IMG/VR virus record: IMGVR_UViG_2597489870_000007
DNA length: 48,718 nt
Source of the DNA: a virus
Taxonomy: Duplodnaviria > Heunggongvirae > Uroviricota > Caudoviricetes
Reading direction: 5' to 3' (one strand)
Position numbers and translations under genes: made by a program. The number at the start of each line of letters is the position of its first letter. Within the stretch, counting starts at the first letter, position 1. Below are positions 15,052-17,766 of this stretch, piece by piece. Below the pieces are notes generated by a model. The model was given only the letters and a program-made list of their open reading frames with translations, was not told where the DNA came from and did not search any database.

Positions 15052-15059
15052 GGATATCG
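15052..15059. repeat. Left 8-bp target site duplication GGATATCG of the IS66-family element
   Basis: Identical 8-mer at 17759..17766; both copies belong to the native U coding sequence. Confidence 0.85.
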
Positions 15060-15112
15060 GTAACCGGCTCATTTAAACCGTCTGGTCTGTTTCCTCCGGC
15101 TCTACAAAAATA

Positions 15113-15790
15113 ATGTCCATCATTTTTAATGGACACTATCGTATGAAACACCGGACCTGGATCACTGAAGCTTTACGTCTTCACTTTGAAGAACATTTAC
15201 CCCGGGTTGTGGCCGGGCGTCGCCTGGGTGTACCAAAATCAACAGTTTGTAGTATGTTCGTGCGCTTTCGGAGAGCTGGCCTTTCGTGGCCTTTGCCCGC
15301 AGGCATGTCGGAGCAGGAACTTGATGCCTGCCTTTACGGACAATTTTCCACGGTACCAGTCGTACGTCCTGAAAGCACCGTTATATCCGAAGCCCCCGTG
15401 GTAAAAAAACGTCCCCGGCGGCCCAACTTCCCTTATGAGTTTAAAATCGCCTTAGTGGAGCAGTCACTGCAGCCCGGAGCCTGTGTGGCGCAGATCGCCC
15501 GGGAAAACGGAATCAACGATAACCTGCTCTTCAACTGGCGCCATCAATACCGGAAAGGTGGCCTGCTGCCTTCCGGAAAAAATATGCCGGCACTGCTTCC
15601 CGTGACGTTAACGCCGGAGCCGGATAATAAAATCCCGGCCCCCGCACAGGAACCAGAGCAGATAAATACACCGTCCGACAGTCTGTGTTGTGAGCTGGTT
15701 CTGCCGGCCGGAACTCTCAGGCTTAAAGGTAAACTGACGCCGGCGTTATTACAGACACTTATCCGCGAAATAAAAGGGAGCAGCCACTGA
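15113..15790 (+). CDS. tnpA: IS66-family accessory protein (orf1)
   Basis: First ORF inside the IS; basic N-terminus with HTH-like segment (RRLGVPKSTVCSMFVRFRRAG). True start may be the ATG at 15143. Confidence 0.6.
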   Translation: MSIIFNGHYRMKHRTWITEALRLHFEEHLPRVVAGRRLGVPKSTVCSMFVRFRRAGLSWPLPAGMSEQELDACLYGQFSTVPVVRPESTVISEAPVVKKRPRRPNFPYEFKIALVEQSLQPGACVAQIARENGINDNLLFNWRHQYRKGGLLPSGKNMPALLPVTLTPEPDNKIPAPAQEPEQINTPSDSLCCELVLPAGTLRLKGKLTPALLQTLIREIKGSSH

Positions 15791-16137
15791 TGATATCTCT
15801 CCCTGCAGGTTCGCGTATCTGGCTGGTTGCAGGTATCACCGATATGCGAAATGGCTTTAACGGCCTGGCATCAAAAGTTCAGAACGTCCTGAAGGATGAC
15901 CCGTTCTCCGGACACCTGTTCATCTTCCGCGGACGCCGGGGTGACCAGATAAAAGTGTTGTGGGCTGACAGTGACGGACTGTGCCTCTTCACCAAACGCC
16001 TGGAGCGGGGCCGCTTCGTCTGGCCAGTCACCCGTGACGGCAAGGTGCACCTTACTCCGGCTCAGTTATCCATGCTTCTTGAAGGTATCAACTGGAAGCA
16101 CCCGAAACGAACGGAACGCGCTGGAATCCGCATATAA
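15790..16137 (+). CDS. tnpB: IS66-family Orf2 (TnpB)
   Basis: 115-aa ORF MISLPAGSRIWLVAGITDMRNGFNGLASKVQNVLKDDPFSGHLFIFRGRRGD, the typical IS66 orf2 sequence and size. Confidence 0.8.
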   Translation: MISLPAGSRIWLVAGITDMRNGFNGLASKVQNVLKDDPFSGHLFIFRGRRGDQIKVLWADSDGLCLFTKRLERGRFVWPVTRDGKVHLTPAQLSMLLEGINWKHPKRTERAGIRI

Positions 16138-16156
16138 CCCGTTGTAAAGTGAGGAT

Positions 16157-17728
16157 ATGGACACCTCACTTGCTCATGAGAACGCCCGCCTGCGGGCACT
16201 GTTGCAGACGCAACAGGACACCATCCGCCAGATGGCTGAATACAACCGCCTGCTCTCACAGCGGGTGGCGGCTTATGCTTCCGAAATCAACCGGCTGAAG
16301 GCGCTGGTTGCGAAACTGCAACGTATGCAGTTCGGTAAAAGCTCAGAAAAACTTCGTGCAAAAACCGAACGGCAGATACAGGAAGCACAGGAGCGAATCA
16401 GCGCACTTCAGGAAGAAATGGCGGAAACGCTGGGTGAGCAATATGACCCGGTACTGCCATCCGCCCTGCGCCAGTCTTCAGCCCGTAAACCGTTACCGGC
16501 CTCACTTCCCCGTGAAACCCGGGTTATCCGGCCGGAAGAGGAATGCTGTCCTGCCTGTGGTGGTGAACTCAGTTCTCTGGGATGTGATGTGTCAGAGCAA
16601 CTGGAGCTTATCAGCAGCGCCTTTAAGGTTATCGAAACACAACGTCCGAAACAGGCCTGTTGCCGGTGCGACCATATCGTGCAGGCACCAGTACCTTCAA
16701 AACCCATTGCACGCAGTTATGCCGGAGCGGGGCTTCTGGCCCATGTTGTCACCGGGAAATATGCAGACCATCTGCCGTTATACCGCCAGTCAGAAATATA
16801 CCGTCGTCAGGGAGTGGAGCTGAGCCGTGCCACACTGGGGCGCTGGACAGGTGCTGTTGCTGAACTGCTGGAGCCGCTGTATGACGTCCTGCGCCAGTAT
16901 GTGCTGATGCCCGGTAAAGTCCATGCTGATGATATCCCCGTCCCGGTCCAGGAGCCGGGCAGCGGTAAAACCCGGACAGCCCGGCTGTGGGTCTACGTCC
17001 GTGATGACCGTAACGCCGGTTCACAGATGCCCCCGGCGGTCTGGTTCGCGTACAGTCCGGACCGGAAAGGTATCCATCCACAAAATCACCTGGCCGGTTA
17101 CAGCGGTGTGCTTCAGGCCGATGCTTACGGTGGTTACCGGGCGTTATACGAATCCGGCAGAATAACGGAAGCCGCGTGTATGGCTCATGCCCGGAGAAAA
17201 ATCCACGATGTGCATGCAAGAGCGCCCACCTACATCACCACGGAAGCCCTGCAGCGTATCGGTGAACTGTATGCCATCGAGGCAGAGGTCCGGGGCTGTT
17301 CAGCAGAACAGCGTCTGGCGGCAAGAAAAGCCAGAGCCGCGCCACTGATGCAGTCACTGTATGACTGGATACAGCAACAGATGAAAACACTGTCGCGTCA
17401 CTCAGATACGGCAAAAGCGTTCGCATACCTGCTGAAACAGTGGGATGCACTGAACGTGTACTGCAGTAATGGCTGGGTGGAAATCGACAACAACATCGCA
17501 GAGAACGCCTTACGGGGAGTGGCCGTAGGCCGGAAAAACTGGATGTTCGCGGGTTCCGACAGCGGTGGTGAACATGCGGCGGTGTTGTACTCGCTGATCG
17601 GCACATGCCGTCTGAACAATGTGGAGCCAGAAAAGTGGCTGCGTTACGTCATTGAACATATCCAGGATTGGCCGGCAAACCGGGTACGCGATCTGTTGCC
17701 CTGGAAAGTTGATCTGAGCTCTCAGTAA
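16157..17728 (+). CDS. tnpC: IS66-family transposase (TnpC)
   Basis: 523-aa ORF with N-terminal coiled coil, CxxC zinc-finger motifs (CCPACGG) and the usual IS66 transposase length. Confidence 0.85.
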
Positions 17729-17758
17729 ATATCAATACGGTTCTGACGAGTCGCTTAC

Positions 17759-17766
17759 GGATATCG
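17759..17766. repeat. Right 8-bp target site duplication GGATATCG of the IS66-family element
   Basis: Identical 8-mer at 15052..15059. Confidence 0.85.

Follow-up and report, generated by a model that had tools for sequence, protein, structure and literature searches.

We consider it very likely, with a probability of roughly 0.93, that a complete copy of ISCro1, an insertion sequence (IS) of the IS66 family, transposed into the lambda-type tail terminator gene U of the prophage situated between yjjG and prfC in E. coli ETEC H10407, with consequences for the function of the prophage that we infer from the established biology of lambda. No evidence contradicts the insertion structure. The DNA analysed (the window, 48,718 nt) is the whole of this lambdoid prophage; it begins at the integrase gene and corresponds to the reverse strand of the H10407 chromosome record NC_017633.1, where the record coordinate is 5121104 minus the window coordinate. 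The features that define the insertion are listed in Table 1.

Table 1. Features of the ISCro1 insertion in gene U, in window coordinates
Feature	Position	Strand	Basis
Left copy of target-site duplication, GGATATCG, 8 bp	15052..15059	.	Sequence reading
ISCro1 (IS66 family), complete, 2,699 bp	15060..17758	+	Full-length identity to labelled copies
Right copy of target-site duplication, GGATATCG	17759..17766	.	Sequence reading
Left terminal inverted repeat, GTAACCGGCTCATTTAAACCGTCTGG	15060..15085	+	18/26 bases match right end
Right terminal inverted repeat, inward reading GTAAGCGACTCGTCAGAACCGTATTG	17733..17758	-	Sequence comparison of ends
tnpA, accessory protein, 225 aa	15113..15790	+	Pfam HTH_Tnp_1 8.6e-15; NF038385; RefSeq WP_001339397.1
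tnpB, IS66-type accessory protein, 115 aa	15790..16137	+	Pfam TnpB_IS66 (PF05717) 4.7e-40; NF033819
tnpC, DDE transposase, 523 aa	16157..17728	+	DDE_Tnp_IS66 (PF03050) 2.5e-103; NF033517; RefSeq WP_000381395.1
Gene U 5' fragment, codons 1-92 (18035 to 17760) + 36 IS-derived codons	17649..18035	-	RefSeq pseudogene ETEC_RS25705
Gene U 3' fragment, codons 93-131 + stop, without own start	14933..15059	-	RefSeq pseudogene ETEC_RS31090

Boundaries of the insertion

A preliminary description of the window, made from the letters alone, had placed a 2,699-bp IS66-family element with an 8-bp target duplication inside gene U. Recomputed coordinates give the same length between the two copies of the duplication, and the duplication itself is found at both ends as described. 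Because the bases flanking the two copies of GGATATCG differ, the duplication is exactly 8 bp long; the odds that 8 bp would agree by chance at two given positions are ∼1 in 65,000. At the other sites examined the same 2,699-bp unit, with identical ends, lies each time between a different exact 8-bp duplication, and such exact duplications were seen at 28 non-redundant ISCro1 sites. The ends of ISCro1 and the 8-bp rule therefore do not depend on the window copy alone. A repeat search had returned a 29-nt inverted repeat at the ends of the element; this candidate was rejected as overlong, being extended by the palindrome GATATC within the duplicated target. The window holds neither a second ISCro1 copy nor a composite transposon, the copy in U being the sole one.

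Gene U

When 14900-15059 is joined to 17767-18060 on the minus strand, a procedure that removes the IS together with one copy of the duplication, a single 131-aa ORF (MKHTELR...TYVITYEM) is restored, in agreement with the earlier count of 131 codons for the two fragments. The two halves match the Pfam family Phage_tail_U (PF06141) at profile positions 1-95 and 90-130, and the restored protein is identical to phage lambda gpU (PDB 1Z1Z) at 130 of 131 residues, the one difference being A13V (lambda gpU structures matched: 1Z1Z, 3FZ2 and 3FZB); the identification of the target as the tail terminator gene is thus well founded. In its present form U is interrupted after codon 92 by 2,707 bp and is not an intact, functional gene. 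The chimeric ORF that begins with the 5' fragment is 128 aa long and reaches a stop within the right end of the IS.

The restored 600-bp site is 99.0% identical to positions 8521-9120 of lambda (J02459), and 3,514 of the 5,426 E. coli genomes searched carry an uninterrupted version of it, with 99.7% as the best identity. The empty and the filled site therefore both exist, the classical proof of insertion.

In the RefSeq version of NC_017633.1 gpU is annotated as two pseudogene pieces flanking the ISCro1 tnpA, tnpB and transposase genes. The U::ISCro1 arrangement was thus already known from the annotation of the reference strain, and the insertion is an ordinary one. Among the 20,395 searched records, which represent 5,426 genomes, only NC_017633.1 and CP007594.1 have the occupied GGATATCG junction. 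Since CP007594.1 has the same length and coordinates as NC_017633.1, it gives no independent confirmation; together with the 13 ISCro1-related places in the H10407 chromosome, this could be taken to mean that a repeated IS was wrongly placed into gene U at assembly. We regard an artefact of this kind as extremely improbable, because neither an exact 8-bp target duplication nor the in-frame fit of the two U pieces to 131 codons would result from a misplaced repeat.

Genes and ends of the element

The three proteins of the element carry the profile matches expected from its assignment to the IS66 family, in Pfam (Table 1) as well as in NCBIfam, where TnpA matches NF038385 (IS66_access_TnpA) with 295.8 bits (cut-off 150), TnpB matches NF033819 with 128.9 bits (cut-off 50) and TnpC matches NF033517 with 477.9 bits (cut-off 180). 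The match of TnpC to PF03050 spans profile positions 1-283 of 284, and the protein has all four IS66 domains: LZ_Tnp_IS66 (PF13007), zf-IS66 (PF13005), the DDE domain and DDE_Tnp_IS66_C (PF13817). The IS66-type tnpB is unrelated to TnpB of IS605. The three-ORF set that had been described as complete is indeed so, with tnpA, tnpB and tnpC all full-length.

The tnpA stop codon TGA (15788-15790) and the tnpB start codon ATG (15790-15792) have one base in common (TGATG, 15788-15792). A stop-start overlap of tnpA and tnpB is linked to translational coupling in the IS66 family (PMC3469429); from the layout we infer that tnpA and tnpB of the window element would be coupled in this way.

Both ends of the element start with GTAA, and 5'-GTAA is a typical start of IS66-family ends. 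The inverted repeats had been called matching; they are present, but the match is only a rough one, with agreement at 18 of 26 terminal positions, so the repeats are imperfect. Agreement at this level is normal for the IS66 family. All the sequence features that mark a member of the family were found: TnpC, tnpB upstream of tnpC, the tnpA overlap, GTAA ends and an 8-bp duplication. A promoter and terminator scan of 14800-18100 gave nothing above shuffled expectation.

Identity as ISCro1

In RefSeq the transposase is named 'IS66-like element ISCro1 family', and many E. coli genomes and plasmids contain copies, labelled as ISCro1 family by RefSeq, with 100% full-length identity to the window element. 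The reference for our assignment was the 2,699-bp copy on plasmid pCROD1 of Citrobacter rodentium ICC168, not the ISfinder entry; C. rodentium is the species behind the name ISCro1. The alignment with this copy, which is located in the last 5 kb of pCROD1 (the first 50 kb of the plasmid contain no ISCro1), is gap-free over 2,699 of 2,699 bp with 98.04% identity. Protein identities between the two copies are 221/225 for TnpA, 114/115 for TnpB and 514/523 for TnpC.

By the ISfinder rule, isoforms of one IS have >95% nucleotide identity over their full length, and the value of 98.04% against the pCROD1 copy lies above this threshold. The 53 substitutions that separate the window element from C. 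rodentium ISCro1 include two in each terminal repeat, four in all; for instance, the left repeat reads GTAACCGG in the window element versus GTAAGCGT in C. rodentium. Judged by its sequence, the window element is therefore ISCro1 in an E. coli isoform, with a sequence not identical to that of the C. rodentium copy. In C. rodentium ICC168 itself ISCro1 has expanded to 24 copies (PMC3072379).

Other copies and ability to transpose

At least two further ISCro1 copies in H10407 have 0 mismatches to the window copy. One is located in the chromosome at 361234-363932, between yagU and ykgJ, with the duplication GTATATCG. The other is on plasmid p666 (record positions 15825-18523), where it adjoins another IS66-family element in a back-to-back arrangement and has no target duplication, its flanks being ACTCATAT and TTCTCTCA. 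The missing duplication suggests a later rearrangement or deletion at the p666 site; not every ISCro1 copy, therefore, marks a simple transposition event.

The window copy itself is probably still able to transpose, and the preliminary suggestion that it may be active is a reasonable one, because its ORFs are intact, because H10407 has copies without a single mismatch to it and because near-identical copies occupy dozens of sites. One may ask instead whether the element looks complete and is nevertheless an immobile relic, the insertion being a fixed scar. This would fit with the lack of a sigma-70-like promoter in the scanned region 14800-18100 and with the fact that transposition in the IS66 family is poorly characterised (PMC12898284), but we find it improbable: the ORFs are full-length, their protein alleles (WP_001339397.1, WP_000624622.1 and WP_000381395.1) occur at many sites in many genomes, and copies with 0-3 mismatches are present at dozens of sites, each with its own 8-bp duplication, which indicates recent movement of this sequence type. 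The window insertion adds to the evidence of recent movement of the element in E. coli.

The searches also produced two observations from outside finished genomes. In the draft genome of Escherichia sp. MOD1-EC7003 ∼30 contig ends stop in the left end of ISCro1, a sign that this strain has undergone a large ISCro1 expansion. Bins assigned to Segatella copri and to Clostridiales likewise contain contigs with ISCro1 (one of them exactly 2,699 bp long); binning contamination is the most likely cause.

Time and place of the insertion

The U::ISCro1 allele might be older than H10407, either inherited in disrupted form with the prophage or gained by recombination between lambdoid prophages, which recombine freely. 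A precedent is offered by the site TCACATTT at the U stop codon: it is occupied in five genomes with differing U and flanking alleles, a pattern that fits recombination or vertical descent. For the window insertion we think such an earlier origin unlikely, since the GGATATCG junction is present in no other lineage among the 5,426 genomes, and since two H10407 copies are free of mismatches to the window copy, in contrast to the nine copies examined from other strains, every one of which differs at IS position 2609. The confinement of the junction to one lineage and the H10407 copies without mismatches therefore favour a recent event within the lineage. An earlier origin would in any case alter only the time and place of the event and not the nature of the feature.

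Choice of target

Junction searches revealed ISCro1 near U in about ten other E. coli genomes, all in one orientation. In prophages of other E. coli strains, a stretch of ∼450 bp around Z/U/V (window-equivalent ∼14911-18062) contains at least six further distinct 8-bp ISCro1 sites; the target sites there include GTTGATGC, TCATCGTC, CCATATCG, TCACATTT and TTTGGTAC. The first of these, at the Z/U junction, is occupied in strains 21310 and RMDEC332 in opposite orientations and has therefore been hit twice independently. Such an accumulation, along with a weak symmetric pattern over the 28 sites, raises the question of whether the U region is a preferred target of ISCro1, as an insertion hotspot or by selection for knock-out of prophage tails.

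We judge a preference of this kind to be improbable. The single orientation near U arose because the junction queries could join only insertions of the same orientation as the window copy. A chimeric query with both IS ends, in which the 3-kb joining distance is unspecific and one O26 clone dominates the matches listed, returned opposite-orientation cases as well as insertions in the protease, capsid and FI genes. A position-blind sample was given by IMG/VR contigs chosen only for the IS left end: their 18 junctions are distributed along the entire late region (window 4653-25937), 12 in the opposite and 6 in the same orientation, with 3 in V-Z versus ∼1.6 expected. The idea of a U/V hotspot with an orientation bias did not survive comparison with the position-blind sample and the both-ends query. 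ISCro1 often lands in lambdoid late genes, with no hotspot specific to U, and this agrees with the known accumulation of IS copies in other mobile elements (PMC3072379).

A strong consensus had also appeared at first, as ATATCG ends three of the first eight duplications; across 28 sites it was gone and a weak symmetric pattern was left. At the 28 non-redundant sites C is found two bases ahead of the duplication (position −2) in 15 cases and G two bases past it (position +9) in 16, and positions 3-6 of the duplication are A/T-rich. The information at each position of the pattern is 0.3-0.4 bit, which exceeds the 95% null (0.21) and falls short of the 99.9% null (0.45). That ISCro1 chooses its targets non-randomly, with a weak two-fold symmetric preference (C, an A/T-rich centre, G), is a tentative and rather doubtful proposition, to which the two independent hits at the Z/U junction also belong; if true, it would give this poorly understood IS family its first rule of target choice, and tail genes of lambdoid prophages might be recurrent ISCro1 casualties.

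Consequences for the prophage

The event was a DDE-type insertion at codons 90-93 of U, with duplication of 8 bp of the target (GGATATCG). It divided U into a 5' piece of 92 codons, to which 36 codons from the IS are fused, and a 3' piece of 39 codons that lacks a start. The gpU protein caps the tail tube, ends its growth and provides the surface to which the head is joined. Loss of U would then yield tails that are neither terminated nor joined to heads, and the prophage is likely to be unable to make infectious particles unless another prophage supplies U. Such a supply of gpU could come from another lambdoid prophage of H10407, and the chimeric 128-aa product, which lacks 39 of the 131 residues, could have some retained function. 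The genes of the IS are oriented opposite to the phage late operon. The 2.7-kb insert may reduce expression of the downstream genes V, G, T, H and other tail genes; polymerase modified by Q should read through much of the insert, and polarity is possibly limited.

The prophage has other lesions. A second IS, of the IS3 family, at window positions 32825-34138, interrupts a KilA-N domain gene in the early region of the prophage; its IS2-like terminal repeats are at 32825-32857 and 34106-34138, and RefSeq has a partial KilA-N piece beside its transposase. In the tail module, the tail fibre gene (window 817-4175) is frameshifted according to RefSeq, a further lesion besides that of U. With the IS2-like element and the frameshifted tail fibre in view, the disruption of U may therefore be neither the sole nor the first block, and the three lesions together mark the prophage as decaying and, in all likelihood, non-infectious; it is very likely unable to build functional tails.

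Two other regions of the window deserve mention. A 3.8-kb gene on the minus strand (window 43485-47312), which adjoins the integrase gene (47495-48718), is annotated in RefSeq as dsr1, encoding the anti-phage defence sirtuin Dsr1; the defective prophage may be retained for cargo such as Dsr1. In the early region Rfam identifies, adjacent to each other on the minus strand, a C4 antisense RNA (82 bits) and an isrK Hfq-binding RNA (64 bits), at 37425-37512 and 37537-37613. The pair of C4 and isrK RNAs is typical of P1/P7-like anti-repressor control modules.

For annotation, the fragments of U are best treated as one pseudogene with a mobile element inside, as RefSeq does. Beyond such bookkeeping the significance of the insertion is small; it adds one clean, fully resolved ISCro1 insertion.

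Comparison with known systems

The window element resembles the IS679 and IS66 prototypes, the features of which were reportedly described by Han et al. in 2001: the order tnpA-tnpB-tnpC, the overlap of the tnpA stop with the tnpB start, imperfect ends of the GTAA type, the 8-bp duplication and a length of ∼2.7 kb are the same. It differs from them in sequence, and its TnpA of 225 aa has ∼100 additional N-terminal residues before HTH_Tnp_1. In comparison with phage lambda, where gpU is intact, the gene for this protein is here split after codon 92 and annotated as a pseudogene.

Other mobile elements carry more than half of the IS copies of C. rodentium (PMC3072379). As an IS lodged in another mobile element, the window case resembles the IS insertions in prophage genes of pathogenic E. 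coli and of C. rodentium and differs from them in nothing essential; what sets it apart is its site, which was not seen in other lineages.
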